Positions 47 to 17,892 of a DNA stretch of 31,955 bases are shown here, piece by piece. The stretch comes from a virus. Its lineage: Duplodnaviria > Heunggongvirae > Uroviricota > Caudoviricetes. The stretch lies in IMG/VR virus record IMGVR_UViG_2713896775_000007, positions 1-31,955 of that record. One strand, 5' to 3'. The translations under genes were made by a program, and so were the position numbers. The notes below the pieces were generated by a model. It saw only the letters and a program-made list of their open reading frames with translations. It made no database searches and had not been told where the DNA came from. Positions within the stretch are counted from its first letter, which is position 1. Each line of letters begins with the position of its first letter.

Positions 47-1387
47 TTGGCACCATTACCCAAGTTTATTGAAGCAGACTTTGGGCTGAATGTGGCAATG
101 CGTATAGCTAATGATGAAAATATTTTGCTCAAGAAAAGTAGATTCTTTTGTGGGGGAAAGAGTCAGGAGGCATCGTCATATTCACAGTTTGTGCAAGGAT
201 CATATTTTCCTGGCGAATCCATCGAACATCTTAAAACAAAAGCCAAAGAAACTGACAAGTGGGGATGTAATAATATAACTTTTTCTGATTCAATACAGCT
301 AAGTTTAGATGGTGCCCCTACTGCATTAGTAGACGTCTTCAATGATATTGATTCTTCGTTGGCAACCAAAGAGAAAATCGAATTTCCTAAATCGGAAAAA
401 ATCACTGACGAGTCAAAGATAGATGAGCTTGATAATTATCTACTTCAATCGATCATTAAAGATGATGTAAATGTTATTATAGATGAGATTCAATCTTTTG
501 GTGCCTCTATTGTAATTAATAATTCTTTGACATTTTTTAAATTGCACACAAAAGTTGAGGGGAGTGGAAAGTATCTTCAATCAGCAGATAAGGTTAATGA
601 CATAAAAATAACAGATGTTAAGCAATTTATAAAAAACAACGACATAAAGGATGTCAATAAAGTTTTTGTTAAGATAACTAATGAAAATAACAGTGGTCAT
701 ACGGCCTCGCTAAAAGAAATATTGAGTATTACTTATAGCGATGGCAGTGAGCACTACTTCCTTAAGAGGGGAGGGTGGAGTCGATTTAACTCTGCCTTTA
801 TGAAGTATTTGTCTACCTCTTTAGCCAGTATAAAATTTGAGGTTAAAGATGCTCTAAAGGAAGACGACTTCAAAGCATGGCAAGCTGAAAAAATAAAACA
901 AATCGAAGAAGGAACTTCTAAAGACAAATTAGAATATAGAGAGTACTATTTTAATGAAAAGATGTCTGTTGAGAAAGGTTATATACTTCTAGATCGCCAG
1001 CTCAAAAAAATACCATCCTTACGTGATGATGGAAAGGACTACAATGTTGAAGTTGCAGATCTTTATAAAAATGGAGAGATTATTGCTGTAAAGATATCAG
1101 ATAAACCGCATGATCTAATTTATAATATTGAGCAGTCAAAAACTACAATTCAAACTATAGTAAGAGGAGTAGTAAAATTTGAAGAGAAAATTACTGATGT
1201 GGTTTTATGGATCTCAACTACTACAAAAGCCAAAAAATTGATTGACATCAATTCTATCCAATTTTTATTAGCGGTTCAAACTTGGAAGGAAGTTGTTGAA
1301 GGATTTAATTTGAAACCAAAGATATATTATTCGCATCACGACAAACCCAAAAAGAAAAAGGAAAAGAAAAAGCCAAAAAACGGTTGA
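47..1387 (+). CDS. Hypothetical protein, 446 aa, lysine-rich C-terminal tail (HHDKPKKKKEKKKPKNG); no recognisable catalytic motif
   Basis: Long uninterrupted ORF bounded by an in-frame stop at 35..37; TTG at 47 or ATG at 98 as start; AT-rich; convergent with the downstream operon. Confidence 0.5.
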   Translation: MAPLPKFIEADFGLNVAMRIANDENILLKKSRFFCGGKSQEASSYSQFVQGSYFPGESIEHLKTKAKETDKWGCNNITFSDSIQLSLDGAPTALVDVFNDIDSSLATKEKIEFPKSEKITDESKIDELDNYLLQSIIKDDVNVIIDEIQSFGASIVINNSLTFFKLHTKVEGSGKYLQSADKVNDIKITDVKQFIKNNDIKDVNKVFVKITNENNSGHTASLKEILSITYSDGSEHYFLKRGGWSRFNSAFMKYLSTSLASIKFEVKDALKEDDFKAWQAEKIKQIEEGTSKDKLEYREYYFNEKMSVEKGYILLDRQLKKIPSLRDDGKDYNVEVADLYKNGEIIAVKISDKPHDLIYNIEQSKTTIQTIVRGVVKFEEKITDVVLWISTTTKAKKLIDINSIQFLLAVQTWKEVVEGFNLKPKIYYSHHDKPKKKKEKKKPKNG

Positions 1388-1495
1388 TTAAAAATATTTA
1401 ATTTCCTTATCGAATAATTTCAGGAGAGAAAAGAACATTCTAATTACCACATTATCAATATTATTTGAGTGTATTGATGGATTTAAAATCTTATG

Positions 1496-1534
1496 TGGTG
1501 GTGTTATGTGAAACTTACACCACCATTGTTTATT
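1496..1534. terminator. Candidate bidirectional intrinsic terminator between convergent genes
   Basis: 9-bp perfect stem TGGTGGTGT (1496..1504) / ACACCACCA (1517..1525), 12-nt loop, followed by TTGTTTATT. Confidence 0.45.
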
Positions 1535-1648
1535 GAACATTTTTAAGAACTTTCAAAATTTACTCTGGATGTTGGTTATAAACTCCATAGCTGATAAGCT
1601 GTGGCACTATTTATGCAATCATAGTGCCCTCATAATCTCTGTACGATT

Positions 1649-3469
1649 TTATTTGAAATGAATTAAACCATAGTTGCCTCTTAATTCATTATCAACAAGA
1701 GTAAAGTTCGTCATTTCTCTGTCAAGCCAATAAGACTCTTCAATATGCTCTAACAGTATTATTTGGAAACCACCATGAGACCGCATTTTCTCAACAAAAG
1801 AATTAATTTCATTTAGGGCTGCATCAAGACTTGCAAAGTCATCAGTTTTTTTACCAGCAGTACTAAAATATGGAGTGCTGGGCTGGTCAATGACTAAGAA
1901 TCGTGGAACCCACGGTACTTTTCTATCTCTTACCAATTCGTGAAGTGCAAGGAAATAAGCTACATGTACATACATATAGTTAGAAGCACTTCCAATATCT
2001 ATCATTTTTTCAACTTGATTTTTATTTATTAAATCAAGTGTTTTTTTTGCCTTGTTGAATATCGGAGTTGCATCCTCAAATCCTTTTAAAGGCATCCGTT
2101 TGAATATTTCCTTTATTTTTCCGTTCAGTAAACTCAATGTATATTCTTTAAAGGCATTATTATCTGTTATCTTGCTTTCTAACTCATTAATTTTAGTAGT
2201 TATCTTTTCTATAGTATCAGTATAATCATATTTAGGGAGAACAACTATCCGTTTAATTTCAGAGCTGAGTTCACCCATGAACCGATAAAGCTCGATTGGC
2301 GTGATTTTTTCATCACTAACAGTTGCAAGTTTTTTACTCAAGGATGATATTTTAAGTTCTAACTCTTTTCTCTTAGCATTTGTTTTTGATATGAGTGAGT
2401 TTTGTCCTTTTTCGGCTATAGCCTTTTTTATCTCTGAGCTTTGGTTCAATAAGGATTTAATGATTGAATAGATTTTTTTTGTATATAATATTTCGCTATA
2501 ATTATCATCTAGATATTTGGCTATTAAAAGAGAGTCTTGGTTATCTTTTAAAAACTTCTTATATTCAGTATTTGTTTCTATATATTCATTAATGTCTGTC
2601 AGTTCTTTTTTTAAGAGGAAAAGTTCTTTTTCAATTTTTGTTCTTTCATTAATTGCTGGGATTTCGTTTATATCCTTGTAATTAACTATCGCTTTCAAAT
2701 TTTCAAGTTTATCACTTACAGTTGGTTCATTCTTGCTGTTTTCACTTATTAAACCAAAATAATACGCCCTGTCGTATAGTGATTCTATTTCACTTTCGAA
2801 ATTGAAATAAGAGTCTTTGCTAGCCGACTGTTTATATTCGATACGAGCAAGATTCCTTTGTAATTCTTCTAACCGCGTTCTCATTATCATAGTTTCGGCG
2901 TTTTCACTGCCAAGAGCCATGTCAAAGGTTCGGTCAATACGCTCTCTTGTCTTTAAATCAGAGATTTTCGAATAAAGATGTTCTGAAGAGGTTAGTGTTG
3001 TTTGATCTATAAAGCAATGCGGGATAAAATATCTATAGGATACTTTTGACCCTTGTTGTATGAATCTACCACCATAAGGGATTTTTAGAGAACTATTAAT
3101 ACCAAACTCATAATTCAGATGTTCTTTTAAAACATCCTTTTTGATATTGTTAATAGGGATTTGTGGAATGCCTCCATTTTTGTCAAAGTAAACTAGATCA
3201 TCTTCTTCAAAGTGTGTCGCTTTTCTACAAATAGTGAAATATTTACCGTTTATACTTAATCTAATCCCATACCAATTTACAAAATTATCGACATTTGTTT
3301 TTGATATACCATCAGATGATGAGGATAAAAGGCAATAATCAATGATAGCCAGTATTGAGGATTTCCCTTTGCCAGAATCACCTGTTATTACATTTACCTT
3401 ATTTTCCTCAAGTTCTAAATTCCTCAAGGTTGAATCAATTTGCCATATTAAAATATTAGTAATCTGCAT
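1649..3469 (-). CDS. SMC/Rad50-like ABC ATPase with coiled-coil insert; LmuB-like ATPase component of a Lamassu/ABC-3C system
   Basis: N-terminal Walker A GDSGKGKSS; long K/E/L-rich central segment (coiled coil); C-terminal Walker B-like RFLVIDQPS and H-loop-like QIILLEH; 1-nt overlap with upstream gene. Confidence 0.7.
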   Translation of the reverse strand: MQITNILIWQIDSTLRNLELEENKVNVITGDSGKGKSSILAIIDYCLLSSSSDGISKTNVDNFVNWYGIRLSINGKYFTICRKATHFEEDDLVYFDKNGGIPQIPINNIKKDVLKEHLNYEFGINSSLKIPYGGRFIQQGSKVSYRYFIPHCFIDQTTLTSSEHLYSKISDLKTRERIDRTFDMALGSENAETMIMRTRLEELQRNLARIEYKQSASKDSYFNFESEIESLYDRAYYFGLISENSKNEPTVSDKLENLKAIVNYKDINEIPAINERTKIEKELFLLKKELTDINEYIETNTEYKKFLKDNQDSLLIAKYLDDNYSEILYTKKIYSIIKSLLNQSSEIKKAIAEKGQNSLISKTNAKRKELELKISSLSKKLATVSDEKITPIELYRFMGELSSEIKRIVVLPKYDYTDTIEKITTKINELESKITDNNAFKEYTLSLLNGKIKEIFKRMPLKGFEDATPIFNKAKKTLDLINKNQVEKMIDIGSASNYMYVHVAYFLALHELVRDRKVPWVPRFLVIDQPSTPYFSTAGKKTDDFASLDAALNEINSFVEKMRSHGGFQIILLEHIEESYWLDREMTNFTLVDNELRGNYGLIHFK

Positions 3470-3915
3470 TATAATCTAACTCCACAAATGTCATATATAT
3501 TGTGTGGTTCTTCTAATAATAAACGTGCAACGTTTATAGATGCTGCCTGTATTTTTACGGCTCTTTTGCCAATAAACGGGATCGCATTATCTAATATTAA
3601 CTTGTTTTTAAATGCTAATTTACCGTGTTCTAATTCAGCTATTCCATTTTCAAGGCACAATGAAACACAATTAACTGAGGATGGAAGGAAATTATAGAAT
3701 CTTTTATTTATGGATACTATTATTTCGGGCTTGGTTAAAAGTAGATCTTGAAAAGATAGTGTATTGGTTCTCTTGTGGGCAAGGTAATCTAAGCTTTTTT
3801 TATGAAATATAATTGGTAAAATTAGCATTGCATTGCTTATTTCAATATTTGATGCTATTGATAACACCTCTTGCAAAGAGAATATACCCAAAAGCTCATT
3901 GTTATATATTTTCAT
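3469..3915 (-). CDS. Small middle component (LmuC-like) of a three-gene Lamassu/ABC-3C operon
   Basis: 148-aa ORF sandwiched between effector and ATPase with 4-nt (ATGA) and 1-nt overlaps, implying translational coupling; size and position fit the middle component. Confidence 0.5.
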   Translation of the reverse strand: MKIYNNELLGIFSLQEVLSIASNIEISNAMLILPIIFHKKSLDYLAHKRTNTLSFQDLLLTKPEIIVSINKRFYNFLPSSVNCVSLCLENGIAELEHGKLAFKNKLILDNAIPFIGKRAVKIQAASINVARLLLEEPHNIYDICGVRL

Positions 3916-5111
3916 TTATAGACTGACTCCCAGTTTTGAAGCCATCCTATTTTGGGCTTATCTGAAAGGAGCAAGAACGTTCCTGTAGTCATAGATTTAG
4001 GTAATTGATTTTTATCCAACACAATATTACAGTTTCCTGTCAATTCAGTATAGACAGAGAAGGCTTTATTAAGATGATCTTCATTTATTTCTGTAAAACG
4101 GCTTCGTATATACGTTGCTGAATGACGTGATTGCCATTCATCAAGCGCTTTTAGATATATTAGTCTTTCTTCTTGAGTTGTTAAATCTCCAGAGCTTTGC
4201 AATTTTTGAATGAAAGCTTCTGTTTTGGCCATTTCATTTATATATTTTACGATTGAATCGCTATTCAAATCCAAATCTTTGAGTTGTTTGTAAGATATCT
4301 TTGATTCAACGTTAGTTGGGTATGCAGATTCAAAATCGTAGTATTGGTCGAAATTATTTATACAATTTCTTGAAATTTGAATAATCCTATCTATTCCCAA
4401 ATTATTTCGAAAATCATCATAACTTATATTTATTTTGGTGTGATTTTTAACCAAATCATATTTATGTTTAAAAAAAGCACCTGAAATATAATTAAAAGCA
4501 TCATCTATTTTATCATCAGGGATTGCTAATGTTTTTAGTAATGTTTTTATTTGGCGGATGATCCCATCTTCGCTATGTTGAAAACTTATACTATTAAATA
4601 AACGTTTAGAAGAATTGCTATCGAGTGAGTTTATGATAGAAATATACTTATAAAGGTCATCTGACTTATTTTTATGATCTTGTTCTATCTTTTCTATTTC
4701 ATCTTTTATTTTTTCAATGTCCTTAGTGTCGTTAGTCAAAAGTTGCACGATACCAGGCTCTAAGGTAAGACCTTTGTTAGTGTAAAAAATAAGGCTAATG
4801 CTTTTGTCGCCTATGGTCTTAATCGCCTCTGACCAATTATATAATGTTTTCCATAAGTCTATGTCTTTATTAGTTATATTAGACTTGTTAATTGAATGTT
4901 TAACTTGAACCAAAGTTTTATGACCCTCGATGCTCTCAAGATGGAGATCGTCATAAACTTCAATCCCAATGTGTTCTTCTGGTTTAAGCTCTAAGGCATG
5001 TTTTAAAGCAACGTAATCTTGATAGGTAAAACCTATTGAATTTTTGTCAGCATTAGTTTTTTCAAAGAAATCCATATGGTAGCCCACTAAGGAAACAAGC
5101 AATGAAAGCAT
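3912..5111 (-). CDS. Effector component (LmuA-like) of a Lamassu/ABC-3C system; N-terminal region compatible with a PD-(D/E)xK-type nuclease
   Basis: 399-aa ORF, first gene of the operon; N-terminal IGIEVYDDLHLE...LVQVKHS resembles a D...(E/Q)xK nuclease signature; start uncertain (ATG at 5111 or 5075). Confidence 0.5.
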   Translation of the reverse strand: MLSLLVSLVGYHMDFFEKTNADKNSIGFTYQDYVALKHALELKPEEHIGIEVYDDLHLESIEGHKTLVQVKHSINKSNITNKDIDLWKTLYNWSEAIKTIGDKSISLIFYTNKGLTLEPGIVQLLTNDTKDIEKIKDEIEKIEQDHKNKSDDLYKYISIINSLDSNSSKRLFNSISFQHSEDGIIRQIKTLLKTLAIPDDKIDDAFNYISGAFFKHKYDLVKNHTKINISYDDFRNNLGIDRIIQISRNCINNFDQYYDFESAYPTNVESKISYKQLKDLDLNSDSIVKYINEMAKTEAFIQKLQSSGDLTTQEERLIYLKALDEWQSRHSATYIRSRFTEINEDHLNKAFSVYTELTGNCNIVLDKNQLPKSMTTGTFLLLSDKPKIGWLQNWESVYK

Positions 5112-5325
5112 AAAAAAACATCAGTATCTTTTTTTTACCATATCAAACACTAAAAACATATGGAAGCATACGTATCAAAGTTTAGTTATATAACCTTATG
5201 TTTTTATACTGGTTTTATGTACATGTGCGCTTTCAATCCGATGAGAATGTTTTAGCTAAGGGGCATTCGTCAGTATATGGGCTTTCCAGGCTCTCCCTAT
5301 CCTTCTTGCTAATCCCCTGTATCAG

Positions 5326-6555
5326 TCAAGCAGCGATAGCTTTAGCTCTTTGAGTTTGAACGTAATCACTCCACCATTGCATCAAACTCTGTCGTTCTAT
5401 CAGATATTCTGCACGATTGTATGCTGCGATAATTTCATCTTTTTTAGAGTGGGCGAGTGCTGCCTCAAGAACTTCAGCTCTGAACTTACCAGACTCCTCT
5501 GCCGCTGTTCTTGCAATCGAACGCATACCGTGAGCTACAAGTTCGCCTCCAAACCCCATTCGGATAATAGCTGCGTTGGCTGTTTGTTCATGCATATGAT
5601 TAAGAGGCGCTTTAATGCTGGGGAAAACCCATTCTCTATGCCCACTTATTGATTTCATTAATTCAAGGATGTGCAAAGCTTCTTTACTCAAAGGAACTTT
5701 GTGAGGCTTTTTCATTTTCATAAAATCAGCAGGAATGTTCCAAATGTTGTTGGTTGTATCAATATCAGACCACCTTGCGCGAACGGCTTCACCCGGACGA
5801 ACCCATGTCAACAATTGCCATTCAATTAGCATACGTGTTTCCAGCCGGATTGACGCATTCGTCAAAGATTCCATAAACCTTGGCAATTCGCTTGGGGGAA
5901 GGGCAGGCATATTTTGCTTTTTTGGTTTACTGAATCTTTGACCAAGGTTGTCAGCCGGATTGAACTCAATAAGTTCTTCAGTGGCTGCCCACCGGAAGAT
6001 TTCATTCAGACGTGAAATGATGCGGCGTAGAGTTTCCAATACGCCTCGTTGCTCAATAGGATCAAGGTGTTGTTTTAAGAGCTTAGGTCGGATCTCATTG
6101 ATAGGGACATTACCCAGGCCAGGAAAGACATTTCTCTCTAAGCTGCGCCAGATGTCTGCTGCATGGTCTTGTGAGATACCTGAGGTCTTTACCTTCTCAT
6201 CCAACCATTTCCTTGCCACGGCTTGGAGAGTGTGTTCAGTAGCATTCTTTAAGGCATTAGCTTTATCGTTGTTATGAACTTGGGGATCAATGCCATTAGC
6301 AAGCAAGGAAAGGTATTCATCTCGTAAGGCTCTGGCTCTTGCCAGTGTAAGGTGAGGATATGTCCCAAGGCTCATTTTGGTTCTTTTTTTACTGACTGGC
6401 ACTGCATACCTGAAATACCAATTCTTCTTTCCTCCTTTCGAGAGGGGAGCGATTCGTAGTATCAAACCATCTCCGTCAAACAAGTTGATTTCTTTGTCGG
6501 CTGGCTTGGTGCTTTTGATTTCAGTGTCAGTGAGCTTCTTAGCGATTTTTGCCAT
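5326..6555 (-). CDS. int: Tyrosine integrase, P4/CP4-57 (IntA) type
   Basis: N-terminal arm-binding-like region (TDTEIKSTKP...LFDGDGLILRI...WYFRY) and C-terminal catalytic region with R...H..R...Y-type residues (HGMRSIART...AYNRAEY); likely start at the internal ATG at 6555 rather than the longest ORF at 6597. Confidence 0.85.
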   Translation of the reverse strand: MAKIAKKLTDTEIKSTKPADKEINLFDGDGLILRIAPLSKGGKKNWYFRYAVPVSKKRTKMSLGTYPHLTLARARALRDEYLSLLANGIDPQVHNNDKANALKNATEHTLQAVARKWLDEKVKTSGISQDHAADIWRSLERNVFPGLGNVPINEIRPKLLKQHLDPIEQRGVLETLRRIISRLNEIFRWAATEELIEFNPADNLGQRFSKPKKQNMPALPPSELPRFMESLTNASIRLETRMLIEWQLLTWVRPGEAVRARWSDIDTTNNIWNIPADFMKMKKPHKVPLSKEALHILELMKSISGHREWVFPSIKAPLNHMHEQTANAAIIRMGFGGELVAHGMRSIARTAAEESGKFRAEVLEAALAHSKKDEIIAAYNRAEYLIERQSLMQWWSDYVQTQRAKAIAA

Positions 6556-6652
6556 TTTGGGACCCTCGGTTTTTGGACCCTTCTTAGTGGGTCCCATTCA
6601 GGGTGCCATAAGTGATAGTTCTCAGCAATTCTCACTGGACGACAATAGACGT

Positions 6653-6684
6653 AAAAAAGCCCGCAGAGCTTGTGCTGTGCGGGC
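6653..6684 (-). terminator. Candidate rho-independent terminator (minus strand) between the tmRNA fragment and the integrase
   Basis: Stem GCCCGCA / TGCGGGC with ~12-nt loop, followed on the minus strand by a T6 run (plus-strand AAAAAA at 6653..6658). Confidence 0.45.
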
Positions 6685-6720
6685 TTAGTAGACTTCATTG
6701 TACTTCAAACAACTAAAAAG

Positions 6721-6765
6721 TGGTGGAGCTGGCGGGAGTTGAACCCGCGTCCGAAATTCCTACAT
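6721..6765 (-). other. ssrA: 3'-terminal fragment of a tmRNA (ssrA)-like gene; probable attachment-site repeat
   Basis: Minus strand reads ATGTAGGAATTTCGGACGCGGGTTCAACTCCCGCCAGCTCCACCA: tRNA-like T-arm and acceptor 3' strand ending CCA, matching the E. coli ssrA 3' end as recalled; adjacent upstream sequence is AT-rich and not tmRNA-like. Confidence 0.75.
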
Positions 6766-6878
6766 ACTATTTTTACTGTAATAAAAACAGTGAATTACGT
6801 TTAAAAACAGTCCTTTAGTGTTATTTGCTGTTTATATGTTTTATGCGTTTTTAATGCTCTGCCGCCACTTTGTCGCCA

Positions 6879-7937
6879 TTAAATGCGCTGGTCATTTGAT
6901 ATAGGTAAAATGCTTGTAAAGAGTTTTTCGTCATATAGTGCGTACTCAGGTATGTAATCACCATTGCTTTTACCTGTTTGGAAGATAGAGGGGTCCTTGT
7001 CGATTAAAACATATAACTCAATGAGAATATTTCTTAGTCCCCAAAGCATTTGCTTTAGTTGTTTTTCATCATTGAATGAGATGCTTATGGCTTCCGTATC
7101 TGGTTTTGGATGTTCAGGAATTATTGAGAAAAGATGTTCTTGGTATTTATAATCAATTCCAAGTAGTCTGCAAAGTTGAATTATGTTTGATTCTATGAGT
7201 TGTAGGCTAACTAATTGGTTGTCATGATTTTTGTTGTTGGACTTAAGCGATTTGTTTATGTTGTTATAATGATTTGTTGTTTTTCGAATAAAATCTTCTT
7301 CGACAGCGGTGCTATAGCCATTATCAATGGAAGATGATTTGAAAATATTTTTATAAAGAGTGTACGGATGAACTACAGATAGTTCAATACTGTCTATATC
7401 ACTAGTTTCTTTATTTAATCTTGATAATTTAAATGTTGGTAGTGTTTGGAATATATCAGCGAAGCTTTTCAGATGTGAGTAATATGAATCAGTGGTGTTT
7501 TTTTCAATAATAAGATTGATTTGCTTTTGTGTTTTTTCTATTTGGTTCTCTGTTTGTGTGGTTCTATGTATATTGTTGACGATTGCTGCAAGAGGTACCG
7601 AAGAAGCTAAAATAAATAATGGCAATTTAGAGATGTCAAGAAAGTGATTAAAACCGTCTGATGTGAAATTTAAATTGTGGCCTTTCCAAGCCCAGAGGCC
7701 ATACAAAACAAACATTTTTAACGGTACGATAATAGATGCTATGAATAATGGTTGTTTTAATAGATTTTTCTCATTTAGTTTAAGCCAATTGAAGCAATAG
7801 AACATAAGTATCAATCCAAGTATATAAGCTACACTAAAGAAGATAAAAACTCTTGGACGATTAGTGTATATCAATGCTAAGGCAATTAAGATGGTAATGA
7901 TTGCGTAGGTAATGATTAATGTGAGTTTTTTTTTCAT
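6879..7937 (-). CDS. Hypothetical membrane protein (about 4 N-terminal TM helices plus ~230-aa soluble C-terminal domain); moron downstream of the prophage integrase
   Basis: ORF begins 4 nt after the integrase stop; hydrophobic segments LTLIITYAIITILIALALIY, VFIFFSVAYILGLILMFYCF, LFIASIIVPLKMFVLYGLWAW, LPLFILASSVPLAAIV; AT-rich; start 7937 or 7979. Confidence 0.5.
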   Translation of the reverse strand: MKKKLTLIITYAIITILIALALIYTNRPRVFIFFSVAYILGLILMFYCFNWLKLNEKNLLKQPLFIASIIVPLKMFVLYGLWAWKGHNLNFTSDGFNHFLDISKLPLFILASSVPLAAIVNNIHRTTQTENQIEKTQKQINLIIEKNTTDSYYSHLKSFADIFQTLPTFKLSRLNKETSDIDSIELSVVHPYTLYKNIFKSSSIDNGYSTAVEEDFIRKTTNHYNNINKSLKSNNKNHDNQLVSLQLIESNIIQLCRLLGIDYKYQEHLFSIIPEHPKPDTEAISISFNDEKQLKQMLWGLRNILIELYVLIDKDPSIFQTGKSNGDYIPEYALYDEKLFTSILPISNDQRI

Positions 7938-7941
7938 TCTA

Positions 7942-8958
7942 TTAAACCAAATTATGTAAAGGATTTTTTGTAACAGCATCTTCTAGATGGTCTGGAGAAA
8001 AGTGTGCGTAAACCATCGTCATTTTTATATCGGCATGGCCCAATATTTCTTTAAGGACAAGAATATTCCCGCCATTCATCATAAAATGACTGGCGAATGT
8101 ATGACGCAGCACGTGGGTGCATTGGCCCTCTGGTAGCTCGATGCCTGCTCGCTTTACTGCTCGTTCAAAGGCTTTTCTGCACGGTGTGAATAGTTTCCCT
8201 CTGTTCTTGGGGAGTTCATCATACAGATTTTGAGATATCGGCACGGTACGATTTTTCTTACCTTTTGTCTTGGTATAGGTGATCCGGTATTTTGATAACT
8301 GATGGCCCTGCAAGTTTTCTGCTTCACTCCATCGCGCACCAGTAGCCAGGCATATTTTTGCAATCATTAGTAGGCTGGTGTTTTGAGATTCGGCGCAGGC
8401 ATTAAGCAGGCGTTTGATTTCGTCCGTGGAAAGAAAAGCCAATTCACCTTCAGCAATTTTGAAGGTTGGAAGCCCTGCCAGCGGGTTTGGTGCGGACCAG
8501 TGCCCTAGTTTTTTCAATGTACCGAACACCGATGACAGGTTACGCTGCTCAAGATTAACTGTGCGAGGTTTAACGGGTGACATGAACGAGCCGTCTTCAT
8601 TTTGGACCTCCCCCTTTAATCTGGCTTCCCGATATTTTGTGAAATCACCTGCTGTCAGCTCAGAGGCGATGGGATCGCCTAGACCATTACAGATAATTCT
8701 AAGTTTCGCCATCAGGCGTTTGGGGTCTGCGAGTGTTTGACCATATAGGGAATACCACTGCTCAATCACTTCTGATAATCGCCGCCGATCTTCCTTCTCA
8801 CCAAGCCATGGCTTTTTGTTTACTTCGTCCATGGTGAAGCTTTCAAATGCAATGGCTTCGCCTTTGGTAGCAAATTGCTTACGCACGCGCTTACCATTGC
8901 GTCCATTGGGATAGCACTCACACAACCATTTTCCGTTCGGCTGTTTTCTGATGGTCAT
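7942..8958 (-). CDS. int: P2-type tyrosine integrase
   Basis: 338 aa; conserved blocks GRNGKRVRKQF, TGARWSEA, HVLRHTFASHFMMNGGNILVLKEILGH...MVYAHF. Confidence 0.9.
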   Translation of the reverse strand: MTIRKQPNGKWLCECYPNGRNGKRVRKQFATKGEAIAFESFTMDEVNKKPWLGEKEDRRRLSEVIEQWYSLYGQTLADPKRLMAKLRIICNGLGDPIASELTAGDFTKYREARLKGEVQNEDGSFMSPVKPRTVNLEQRNLSSVFGTLKKLGHWSAPNPLAGLPTFKIAEGELAFLSTDEIKRLLNACAESQNTSLLMIAKICLATGARWSEAENLQGHQLSKYRITYTKTKGKKNRTVPISQNLYDELPKNRGKLFTPCRKAFERAVKRAGIELPEGQCTHVLRHTFASHFMMNGGNILVLKEILGHADIKMTMVYAHFSPDHLEDAVTKNPLHNLV

Positions 8959-9634: not shown

Positions 9635-9710
9635 CCATTTATGGTTTGAAAAGCAAAACCAAACCACATAAAACAAGATAAAACGAAACCAAACTAAGAG
9701 ATACTGCACT

Positions 9711-9953
9711 ATGAGTACTGATATTTCAATTCGTGTACCAAAAGAGATGGCTACGCCTGCAGAGTTCGCGGAATGGGAAGGTATCTCCCGCGGCTCCGTG
9801 TATCAAAAAATTCACCATGGTCAGCTTGCTAAATACATGGTCAAGAAAGAAAAAAACAAAGGCCGCGTAAGCCTGCGTTATCTGATGTACAAAACCGATC
9901 AAGTCCGTGAATCCCTCGGTCATTCCAACTTCCGCGTCATTGTTGGTAAGTAA
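9711..9953 (+). CDS. Small HTH protein in Apl/Cox position (excisionase/early regulator-like)
   Basis: 80-aa ORF, first gene of the rightward early operon, directly opposite CI. Confidence 0.5.
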   Translation: MSTDISIRVPKEMATPAEFAEWEGISRGSVYQKIHHGQLAKYMVKKEKNKGRVSLRYLMYKTDQVRESLGHSNFRVIVGK

Positions 9954-15169: not shown

Positions 15170-15196
15170 TTTACATCAGTAAGATTATTATATACT
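15170..15196 (+). promoter_or_regulatory. Candidate SOS promoter for the orf62/dinI-like operon
   Basis: TTTACA (15170..15175), 15-nt spacer, TATACT (15191..15196), with the -10 overlapping the LexA box. Confidence 0.4.
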
Positions 15197-15212
15197 GTAA
15201 ATATAAACAGTG
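15193..15212 (+). promoter_or_regulatory. LexA (SOS) box
   Basis: TACTGTAAATATAAACAGTG = CTGT-N8-ACAG with AT-rich spacer, 41 nt upstream of orf62. Confidence 0.75.
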
Positions 15213-15252
15213 GTTATGTATACAGTATTGCTTTGGTGTCATAGGAGGAAAG

Positions 15253-15441
15253 ATGCAGGCCTATTTTTTGGAGTCTTTGAAGCTCCAGCGCATTGATTTT
15301 TTTCTTAAGCTTGTAGCGGCTAGTGAGTGTAGTGATGAAGAGAAGGGGCTGGCTTTGCAGTGGGTTTCTGAACTAACAGATGAACTCATGGCAAAAATCA
15401 GAACCCACGAATACAACCGCTCAATGGATGTCATCAGCTGA
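15253..15441 (+). CDS. Small SOS-controlled protein (candidate Tum-like antirepressor; function not established)
   Basis: SD AGGAGG at 15243..15248; directly downstream of the LexA box; first gene of a two-gene unit with the DinI-like gene. Confidence 0.45.
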   Translation: MQAYFLESLKLQRIDFFLKLVAASECSDEEKGLALQWVSELTDELMAKIRTHEYNRSMDVIS

Positions 15442-15451
15442 GGTGACTTTT

Positions 15452-15685
15452 ATGCGCATTGAAATAATGATCGATAAAGAGCAGAAGATTAGCCAGTCTA
15501 CCCTGGACGCTCTGGAGTCCGAGCTTTACCGCAACCTGCGCCCCCTGTATCCCAAAACGGTAATTCGTATCCGTAAAGGTAGCTCTAACGGTGTGGAACT
15601 GACCGGACTGAAACTGGACGAAGAAAAAAAACAAGTGATGAAAATTATGCAGAAGGTGTGGGAAGACGACAGCTGGCTGCATTAA
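15452..15685 (+). CDS. DinI-like protein
   Basis: MRIEIMIDK...LESELYRNLRPLYP...WEDDSWL resembles DinI; SD GAGGTGA before ATG 15452. Confidence 0.8.
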   Translation: MRIEIMIDKEQKISQSTLDALESELYRNLRPLYPKTVIRIRKGSSNGVELTGLKLDEEKKQVMKIMQKVWEDDSWLH

Positions 15686-15999
15686 GAAACGTTGCCCCCA
15701 GGAGGATTCATTCTGAAGGGGGCTAGTTTGGGCAACGAGTGAAATAAGGTGTAAGGTCATTTTGATAAATGATCGTCTGCTTTGTGCAAGATGCAAACGT
15801 TTCTTCTGCTAACTTTCGTTAATTAACGAATGGCAGACTAATTCGCAACGGATAATCTGAATTTTGTAAGATTATGGGCATTTCTATAAAATTTACTAAT
15901 AATAACCTTACAATGTACACTACCGATTGAATTTTCCATAGTTGGCCTTTGGCTCTACTTACCATCTATGTTTATGTATTTTATCAAAATGGACTAAAA

Positions 16000-17892
16000 A
16001 TGAACAATACGTACATCAAAGACTATATAGAATATTACCTTAGCCTTACAACTGAACCTCAATACGCCATTATGCTTAAAGGTGCTTGGGGATCAGGTAA
16101 AACTTGGTTCATTGAACAAGTTCTTGAAGAATATAAGCAGAAGAATTCAGAGTTTAAATTTCTAAAAGTGAGTTTGTATGGCGTCAACTCTATTAAGCAG
16201 ATTGAAGATGAGTTCTATCGTCAACTTCATCCTGTCCTATCAAACAAAGCCCTTATCTTTGGTGCAAATGTACTAAAAAATACGCTTAAGGCTACTTTCA
16301 AGATCGATCTCAATGGCGATAATAAATCTGACGTTGATGTCAATACCAATGTTCCCACCATTAATCTTAACGATTTTAGTAGAAAACCAGATGGTTTTGT
16401 GCTGGTCTTTGATGATATCGAGAGAGCTGGTATAGATTTACCAATTTTATTTGGATATATAAACCACTTTGTAGAAGTAAACGGATACAAAGCGATCTTG
16501 GTTGCCAATGAAGAAGAAATAATCAATAGAGAAAAGCGAATAAATAATGATGATGAGAAATCTAGCAGCGAATACATGAGAACAAAAGAAAAGCTTGTTG
16601 GTAAAACATTTGAAGTAACGTCAGATTTACATAGTGCTTGTAATGTTTTTTTGGGCGTAATTAGCAGTTTACACGTTGCTAATATATTTAAAGAAGATAT
16701 GCAGGCCATAGAAGACATCTATGTGTCGGCGAAATATAATAATCTAAGACACTTGAGGCAGTTCTTTCTTGATGTACAACGCATCATTTCCCTTTTTGGA
16801 AATAAATATGTCAGCAACGACGATTTTATGAGGGTATTTTTCCAGCAGTTGTTAATTTTCTCGATAGAGTACCGGGGAGGGAACCTTAACTACGAGGAAT
16901 TCGATTCAATCAGCAATGTTAATTATGGTATGTTTTTAGGTAAAGAGCGTACCAAAACTAAGTATGACATGATCGTCGAGAAATATTCATCTCCTGTATT
17001 AACCGAGAAGTTACTGGATGGTGCGTACTGGAGGGAGCTAATCTGTGATGGAAAGGTAACGAGTGAACTTCTCGCTCAGTTGGATATTACGCGATTTTTT
17101 AGAAGCACCGATGCCCAAGCATGGGAGTATTTGTGGAACTATCGAGAACTTAATGAAACTATGCTTAATGAGCAGTACGCCATTGCCAAGGATAATCTAT
17201 TTTCAGGTAAGATCACTTCCTTAGGTGAACTCCTGATGACCGCGAGTATTTTGCTGGACATGGCGAAAGAAGGTCTAACAACAGATGATGTTCATGATCT
17301 CATAAATGAGACAAAACAGAATATAAATAATTATTATAATAGACTTAGAGCTGAAGATATACATAAGGAATATGCGCAAACGCATTATAACGAATTAAGG
17401 GCATGGCGTGGCTTTGGTTTTCTTGACAGGGATAGCGATGAATTCAAACTCATTATTGAGCATATTGAGATAGCGAAGAAGAAACGGTTTGATGAATCAA
17501 TTCCGGAATTTGCGTTGCAGTTCAGCGATGAGTTGCAAAGGGGAAACTTATCGTTTGTATCTGAATTGAGTCATTCTAATAATAGGCAGTTAAATCTTCA
17601 TAACGTGCCTTTTTTACACTTGGTTCCTCCTGAAGTTTTCATTGAAAGCTATAGGAAACTTGACCCAGTCCTCATGAGGAAACTGGCATTTAGCTTGCGG
17701 AATCGTTATTCTGATGGGGATGCTAGAACCAGACTGACCGAAGAATACAACTGGTTGATTAACCTAAAAGAGATAGCTGTAGATTTCACTCAAAACGCAG
17801 CCAATAACTCCTTTCAGGTTTTTCACGTAAAGTTTTTTATTGACTATGTATTAACTAGCGCAATCAAATTCTTTACTGAGGGAACTGATTAA
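16000..17892 (+). CDS. KAP-family-like P-loop NTPase (cargo; candidate anti-phage gene)
   Basis: Walker A GAWGSGKT and Walker B VLVFDDIER (hhhhDD-x-ER, KAP-like) about 115 aa apart; large helical C-terminal region; AT-rich; likely start ATG 16000. Confidence 0.75.
   Translation: MNNTYIKDYIEYYLSLTTEPQYAIMLKGAWGSGKTWFIEQVLEEYKQKNSEFKFLKVSLYGVNSIKQIEDEFYRQLHPVLSNKALIFGANVLKNTLKATFKIDLNGDNKSDVDVNTNVPTINLNDFSRKPDGFVLVFDDIERAGIDLPILFGYINHFVEVNGYKAILVANEEEIINREKRINNDDEKSSSEYMRTKEKLVGKTFEVTSDLHSACNVFLGVISSLHVANIFKEDMQAIEDIYVSAKYNNLRHLRQFFLDVQRIISLFGNKYVSNDDFMRVFFQQLLIFSIEYRGGNLNYEEFDSISNVNYGMFLGKERTKTKYDMIVEKYSSPVLTEKLLDGAYWRELICDGKVTSELLAQLDITRFFRSTDAQAWEYLWNYRELNETMLNEQYAIAKDNLFSGKITSLGELLMTASILLDMAKEGLTTDDVHDLINETKQNINNYYNRLRAEDIHKEYAQTHYNELRAWRGFGFLDRDSDEFKLIIEHIEIAKKKRFDESIPEFALQFSDELQRGNLSFVSELSHSNNRQLNLHNVPFLHLVPPEVFIESYRKLDPVLMRKLAFSLRNRYSDGDARTRLTEEYNWLINLKEIAVDFTQNAANNSFQVFHVKFFIDYVLTSAIKFFTEGTD

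Follow-up and report, generated by a model that had tools for sequence, protein, structure and literature searches.

A LexA-box look-alike, probably accidental, beside an ssrA fragment in the integrase-proximal attachment arm of a Fels-2/186-type prophage

A perfect palindrome that resembles a LexA box and lies beside a fragment of the tmRNA gene ssrA is most probably an accidental look-alike in the integrase-proximal attachment (att) arm of a Fels-2/186-type (P2-family) prophage inserted in ssrA. Its right half (AAAAACAGT) would be the A-tract and the (W)A(W)CAR core (AAACAG) of an IHF-consensus module, named H-a here, and would be LexA-like only because AACAG includes ACAG. Its left half, ACTGT, would fall in an unconstrained variable linker with the family consensus ACTAT, in which a single, lineage-specific A-to-G change at position 6778 would have created CTGT. 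The att arm itself is ordinary, already known biology. All positions refer to the window, the whole stretch of 31,955 nucleotides that was analysed.

Results

Genomic context of the palindrome

The palindrome is situated 9 bp from the 46-nt 3' fragment of ssrA, outside the att core and on its integrase-proximal side. The features of the junction and of the prophage to which it belongs are listed below.

5326..6597, minus strand: P4-type integrase (Pfam Arm-DNA-bind_3, Phage_int_M and Phage_integrase) encoded on the adjacent island and using this ssrA fragment as well
6657-6671: native ssrA terminator, from terminator prediction
6721..6766, minus strand: 3'-terminal 46 nt of ssrA (tmRNA), predicted attachment core common to the phage and bacterial att sites, here at the two-island junction; sub-threshold Rfam tmRNA match
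6767..6775, plus strand: ACYATTTTTA flank, adjoining the core and conserved in the alignment of ten phages
6785..6797, plus strand: H-a, AAACAGTGAATTA, core-proximal IHF-consensus module, 12 of 13 positions of WATCAR-N4-TTR, including the right half of the palindrome
6805..6817, plus strand: H-b, AAACAGTCCTTTA, second IHF-consensus module, 20 bp from H-a
6816..6856, minus strand: putative operators of an Apl-type excisionase (RDF), TAAAAC-like direct repeats, about four in number and spaced by roughly 10 bp, the strongest at 6836-6845 (CATAAAACAT)
6860..6881, plus strand: Int arm-type sites TGCCGCCACTT and TGTCGCCATTA in tandem, matching the 186 consensus and nearly invariant in 93 homologous arms
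6879..7979, minus strand: cargo ORF of 366 aa (orf366) between the att arm and int, overlapping the int stop region; no Pfam match
7942..8958, minus strand: 186/P2-type tyrosine integrase, transcribed towards the core, 55% identical to 186 Int (Pfam Int_N and Phage_integrase)
9711..9953, plus strand: switch regulator and excisionase of Apl/Cox type; identity to 186 Apl 30% (E=4e-13); TAAAAC operators upstream at 9650-9695
15193..15227, plus strand: overlapping pair of LexA boxes, matrix ranks 1 and 2 in the window, ahead of a split tum/dinI operon

Judged from these features, the segment 6721-6766 serves as attachment core for a P2-family prophage of Fels-2/186 type, which adjoins an island with a P4-type integrase. 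The Rfam tmRNA match that begins at 6721 scored 40.2 bits, which is sub-threshold, and was seen only at a relaxed threshold; neither a tRNA/tmRNA scan nor Rfam at the gathering threshold found an intact tmRNA or tRNA anywhere in the window. The 46-nt ssrA block is identical in the intact attP of Cartapus, SEN8, SopEPhi and MLG42. The Cartapus and SEN8 records contain an intact attP in which the ssrA block carries both arms on either side, and the Fels-2 record labels the corresponding end attP. The arm has the components of a 186-type attP, namely an adjoining core formed by a tRNA/tmRNA 3' end, tandem arm-type sites and a 186-type int directed towards the core. To the right of the arm the prophage genes follow in the order orf366, Int, CI, Apl homologue, CII, replication protein A (GPA) and DinI, and the ORFs after DinI fit P2-type late genes in size and order. 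The slot of orf366 is empty in Fels-2, SEN8 and MLG42; in Cartapus it holds a RES-domain protein, and in RE-2010 and SopEPhi other, unknown ORFs.

The two-island junction layout is also present in E. coli genomes. Among the complete E. coli genomes in the collection, none matched positions 6400-7200 above about 85% over the full length, and the two halves separately matched at 92-99%. The window appears to represent an island combination unrepresented among those complete genomes, or to come from a close relative of E. coli. Two annotations touch the same region. In the RefSeq E. coli sequence NZ_AP022036.1 (L130, 2821-2997) a truncated 177-nt 'ssrA tmRNA' is annotated over the homologous junction and enters the phage arm DNA, a call that is probably an annotation artefact arising from the 46-nt ssrA fragment. 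The Salmonella sRNA IsrM gives a partial match at 6653-6730 on the minus strand (56.6 bits against a gathering score of 376), which covers only the ssrA 3' end and terminator.

The crossover may adjoin the octamer TTCCTACA at 6757-6764, or it may fall at the end of the homology at 6760-6766. In Fels-2-type attP this octamer is inside the ssrA core, and in the 186 attP it is found just outside the tRNA homology (L010, 532-539). It is a candidate for a core-type Int site common to both, in which case the crossover would be near 6749-6756.

The palindrome as a LexA operator

Reading of the window sequence confirmed the 17-bp palindrome ACTGT-N7-ACAGT at 6775-6791 (ACTGTAATAAAAACAGT) in the surrounding sequence ...cctacatactattttTACTGTAATAAAAACAGTGaattacg...; the 19-mer TACTGTAATAAAAACAGTG quoted in the original prediction corresponds to 6774-6792. 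The half-sites CTGT (6776-6779) and ACAG (6787-6790) are inverted and separated by AATAAAA, so that the 7-nt spacer and the coordinates given for this LexA-box-like sequence were accurate, as was the 8-nt spacer ascribed to the SOS box at 15193..15212 (TACTGTAAATATAAACAGTG) with which it had been compared. In the window CTGT-N7..9-ACAG occurs twice against an expectation of 1.09, a count that was equalled in 36 of 100 shuffles. For the exact 17-nt pattern the expectation is 0.02 per window, a value to be read in the knowledge that the pattern was picked after being seen. The statistical weight of the palindrome is small, and resemblance alone does not show more than chance. Words like AAAAACAGT are not enriched in the window (18 counted, 13 expected). 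A role as hairpin or terminator was considered and rejected: the fold reaches only -2.7 kcal/mol (z = -1.1), and terminator prediction was negative there.

The LexA operator consensus in Gammaproteobacteria is CTGT-N8-ACAG (PMC8601168). Like the E. coli operator TACTGT-(AT)4-ACAGTA, the palindrome has both pentameric half-sites in inverted orientation and an AT-rich spacer; however, its spacer measures 7 bp instead of the 8 bp of the 16-bp core, and neither a promoter nor conservation goes with it. We scored the window with a LexA position weight matrix built from 21 E. coli operators, the scores of which are approximate. The palindrome ranked 213 of 31,936 in the window, its best register giving -3.4 bits, about 17 bits under the weakest training operator on this approximate scale, the 21 operators ranging from 13.2 to 25.6 bits. 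Prediction of sigma-70-like promoters on both strands of 6500-7100, about 300 bp around the palindrome, returned none, and the palindrome is positioned 3' of the lysogenic operon cI-int-orf366. Because of the 7-nt spacer, the score of -3.4 bits, the missing promoter prediction and the lack of conservation at orthologous positions described below, we conclude from the sequence that the palindrome is not a LexA operator. The same four observations support the earlier expectation that it would probably be non-functional for LexA.

It is extremely improbable that the palindrome is a weak yet functional operator with non-canonical 7-nt spacing, one that would place integration, excision or read-through at this junction under the influence of the SOS response. 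Such a role would be in line with the perfect extended half-sites (TACTGT / ACAGTG) and the AT-rich spacer, with the 21.4-bit box that the matrix predicts after insertion of one base into the spacer, and with the SOS control of the prophage that exists elsewhere, at the 15193 box. Nevertheless, gammaproteobacterial operators are spaced by 8 nt (PMC8601168) and the in-register score here is -3.4 bits, a predicted promoter to regulate is absent nearby at this place downstream of the lysogenic operon, and the left half is missing in 92 of 93 homologous arms, G6778 being a minority allele.

The SOS input of the prophage is, as predicted from sequence features, the double LexA box at 15193-15227. 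With the same approximate matrix the 15193 box scored 23.2 bits and the overlapping box at 15208 scored 15.3 bits. Overlapping LexA boxes are also known at colicin promoters, which the double box resembles. Downstream follow a 62-aa ORF and then an overlapping DinI-family ORF (15380-15685), both within 15253-15685, which together look like a split tum antirepressor/dinI operon; a split tum has been reported in Fels-2 and PSP3 (PMC3121763). The tum/dinI genes are directly followed, at 15949-17892, by a gene for a 647-aa KAP-family P-loop NTPase. It is likely a cargo or defence gene, and its position is one that we take to be a variable slot of P2-like phages.

Conservation across homologous arms

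A pattern scan of IMG/VR returned 126 arms. The counts are based on the 93 of them that are distinct and stay in register with no indel. Since positions 6767-6772 are fixed by the search pattern in this set, only 6773-6775 of the conserved flank are informative in it. The left tetramer at 6776-6779 reads CTAT in 25 arms, GTAT in 19, TTAT in 11 and CTGT in a single one, and position 6778 is G in 7 arms and A in 66. One of the 93 arms has both halves of the palindrome together, and none has an N8-spaced box. In the 39 more distant 186-type arms described below, CTGT-N7/8-ACAG is absent.

An alignment of ten phages (including Fels-2, SopEPhi, SEN8, RE-2010, Cartapus, MLG42 and three Klebsiella phages) gave a mean column identity of 76% through the arm, and its left-half variants are ACTAT, AGTAT, ATTAT, ACCCT, ACATC and TGTGT. 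The att site in ssrA of the Fels-2/SopEPhi group (Felsduovirus and the related Elveevirus and Gegevirus) has the same 46-nt core and the same arm at 79-87% identity; however, these phages carry CTAT, GTAT, TTAT or CCCT in place of the CTGT of the window and are thus without the palindrome. Integration of SopEPhi and Fels-2 in ssrA has been published (cited in PMC3448106).

Since CTGT is present as left half in only 1 of 93 arms and the N8 box in none, the palindrome is not conserved and is not a remnant, and its distribution shows that it is not under selection. This weighs against the earlier suggestion that the sequence could be a decayed ancestral SOS box which has lost one spacer base. Although the palindrome is indeed a single indel away from a strong box, CTGT-N8-ACAG is found in 0 of 93 homologous arms and 0 of 39 distant ones, the homologous arms align gap-free across the palindrome segment, and the family consensus CTAT identifies CTGT as the derived state; we attach hardly any credence to an origin by decay.

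The conserved positions of the 93 arms lie elsewhere. They comprise AAA(A/T)CA at 6784-6789 with TT at 6795-6796, and AAA(A/T)CA at 6804-6809 with TTA at 6815-6817, the 4-5 bases inside each module being free. The flank at 6767-6775 may represent either a core-type Int site or the A/T tract that belongs to H-a.

IHF-type modules in the arm

Both conserved blocks coincide with the IHF consensus WATCAR-N4-TTR, from which H-a and H-b of the window depart at consensus position 3, where each has A in place of T. In the 93 arms C6788, A6789 and T6795-T6796 of H-a are invariant or nearly so, while N4 varies. With at most one mismatch, the consensus is found in the H-a register in 61% of these arms and in the H-b register in 90%, and in any other register or strand in at most 4%. 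A single-sequence scan of the window at the same stringency is uninformative alone (73 matches, 68 expected), and the argument for IHF is therefore based on the pattern of conservation.

To look beyond the Fels-2 group, we collected 80 genomic loci encoding a 186-type Int (53-94% identity), of which 43 have recognisable tandem arm sites; the cores of 39 of these 43 differ from the Fels-2-type ssrA core. The 39 arms with unrelated cores come from Pectobacterium, Rahnella, Shewanella, Aeromonas, Gilliamella and others. Since shifts of 1-2 nt blur the information content of fixed columns in this set, a histogram of offsets from the first arm-type CGCCA was used instead. IHF matches with at most one mismatch cluster at -77 to -79 (25 arms, 15 of them exact) and at -58/-59 (22 arms, 7 exact), with essentially no other offsets, and the pairs of H-a/H-b type are all on the same strand and 19-20 bp apart. 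In the window, where the first CGCCA is at 6863, H-a is at -78 and H-b at -58. The modules persist despite differing cores and differing excisionase repeats (TTGCCA in 186, TAAAAC here), which points to a host factor rather than an RDF as the cause of their conservation, with IHF as the obvious candidate.

H-a thus shows the consensus match and the selective conservation of an IHF site, but it does not correspond to a footprinted site in a relative. We see an even chance that IHF occupies H-a. The claim stays at this level because the DNase I footprint in 186 covers only the equivalent of H-b, and because an IHF site spans roughly 35 bp, so that two full sites 20 bp apart would overlap. These same two points speak for a reading in which H-a has no dedicated protein and is conserved for bending or spacing, as a phased A/T-tract spacer, as the 5' flank of H-b or as an outer core-type Int site; A/T tracts recurring about every 10 bp (6770-74, 6783-87 and 6803-07) would also fit. 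We nevertheless consider it unlikely, since conservation is focused on exactly those bases that define the IHF consensus (C, A, TT, R), and the match at H-a is perfect in many lineages, including the 15 exact matches among 39 arms.

With H-a read as a candidate IHF module, the original prediction that the palindrome could be part of an integrase or IHF arm site holds in one part: the right half corresponds to the WATCAR core of H-a, a conserved IHF-consensus module in the arm next to int. The palindrome as a whole, however, is not an Int arm-type site, these being at 6860-6881, and its left half is unconserved linker.

Apl-type repeats and Int arm-type sites

TAAAAC-type hexamers at 10-bp intervals are present upstream of apl (9650-9700) and are conserved in 49 related switch regions. 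A 10-bp direct-repeat pattern has been described for Apl (PMC7498355), and the hexamers are likely the Apl operators of the Fels-2 group, unlike the TTGCCA-type operators of 186. The Apl of Fels-2-type loci is 67-100% identical, and all these loci have the same TAAAAC operators. From the TAAAAC repeats at -52/-42/-32 relative to the apl start codon in 49 distinct cI-apl switch regions, which represent several immunity types, we derived an operator matrix. Applied to the arms, it gave its best match, with a mean of 8.5 bits against an operator median of 11.0, at 6836-6845 (minus strand) and weaker, phased matches at 6816, 6826 and 6846, so that Apl may be expected to bind within 6816-6856.

The same matrix bears on the possibility that the conserved right half, ATAAAAAC, is an inverted operator of the Apl-type excisionase and not an IHF site. 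Its reverse complement, GTTTTTAT, is indeed similar both to the switch operators (TAAAAC) and to the GTTTTA repeats found at 6838-6853, and in the window the matrix reaches 5.1 bits at 6780 on the plus strand. Over the arms, however, the mean score at the palindrome is only 2.1 bits, against 8.5 at the 6836 site and 11.0 for true operators, which makes an Apl operator unlikely here. Further points weigh against it as well: the orientation is wrong, the spacing is 20 bp and not 10 bp, an IHF site, but not TAAAAC, is matched by the invariant TT that follows 7 nt downstream and by the alternation of A and T that yields AAATCA, and the module is kept in arms of 186 type with other Apl operators (TTGCCA). 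Taken with these points, we hold this alternative to be very unlikely and retain the IHF-type module as the preferred reading of the right half.

Comparison with phage 186 and lambda

The GenBank record of 186 gives the order truncated tRNA core with predicted crossover, IHF DNase I footprint, five Apl sites, Int arm-type sites, orf69 and int. The footprint lies at 558-587, the Apl sites at 576-622 and the first arm-type CGCCA at 630 (L010 coordinates). A MAFFT alignment aligned poorly past the core, and the 186 coordinates were mapped by anchoring on the first arm-type CGCCA (630 to 6863). The footprint then corresponds to 6791-6820 and the Apl sites to 6809-6855 of the window. The mapped footprint takes in all of H-b but only the TTR end of H-a, and by this mapping H-b takes the position of the IHF site footprinted in 186. 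In 186 two ATCA-type modules are found at -79 and -59, their window equivalents being those at -78 and -58.

The order of elements and their distances from a 46-nt tRNA-like 3'-end core are the same in both phages. The arm-type sites, for which the 186 record gives the consensus YAYCGCCAYTY and the literature tgccGCCActt for the 186 type (PMC3448106), are nearly identical as well (TACCGCCACTT/TATCGCCATTC in 186, TGCCGCCACTT/TGTCGCCATTA here), with integrases that are 55% identical. In contrast, the core is ssrA here and tRNA-Ile in 186, the repeats are of TAAAAC type here and of TTGCCA type in 186 with Apl proteins only 30% identical, and a 366-aa cargo ORF is present in place of orf69. Moreover, the footprints belong to 186, whereas the assignments in the window are made from sequence alone.

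The IHF sites of lambda attP (H1, H2 and H') share the consensus WATCAR-N4-TTR with an A/T-rich 5' flank, and the candidate modules described here are likewise located between the core and the arm-type Int sites, beside excisionase sites. However, the two putative sites of the window are on the same strand, only 19-20 bp apart, and would overlap.

Discussion

We propose that, rightwards from the core, the att arm would consist of an A/T segment, H-a, H-b, about four Apl-type repeats, two Int arm-type sites, the cargo ORF and int. By analogy with 186, IHF would bend the arm so that Int bound to the arm-type sites also reaches the core, and Apl filaments over the direct repeats would re-shape the arm for excision. 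LexA would have no role at the arm; the SOS signal would enter through the 15193-15227 box that is predicted to control the split tum/dinI antirepressor operon.

Since H-a and H-b would overlap as full sites, they may be mutually exclusive IHF positions that form a directionality switch, a speculative idea that we rate as decidedly unlikely. IHF would be at H-b in the integrative complex, and Apl, on filling its operators, would move IHF to H-a, by which the phase of the bend would be changed for excision. In 186 the Apl operators do overlap the footprint that is equivalent to H-b. Even if such a switch were to exist, the LexA-like palindrome would still be incidental.

The assignment removes a false lead to an SOS operator, identifies the junction as the arm on the integrase side of a Fels-2/186-type ssrA att site and locates the predicted true LexA input of the prophage. 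For the family as a whole, the paired IHF-type modules at fixed offsets, which extend across the 186-type integrases, are a candidate part of the directionality control.
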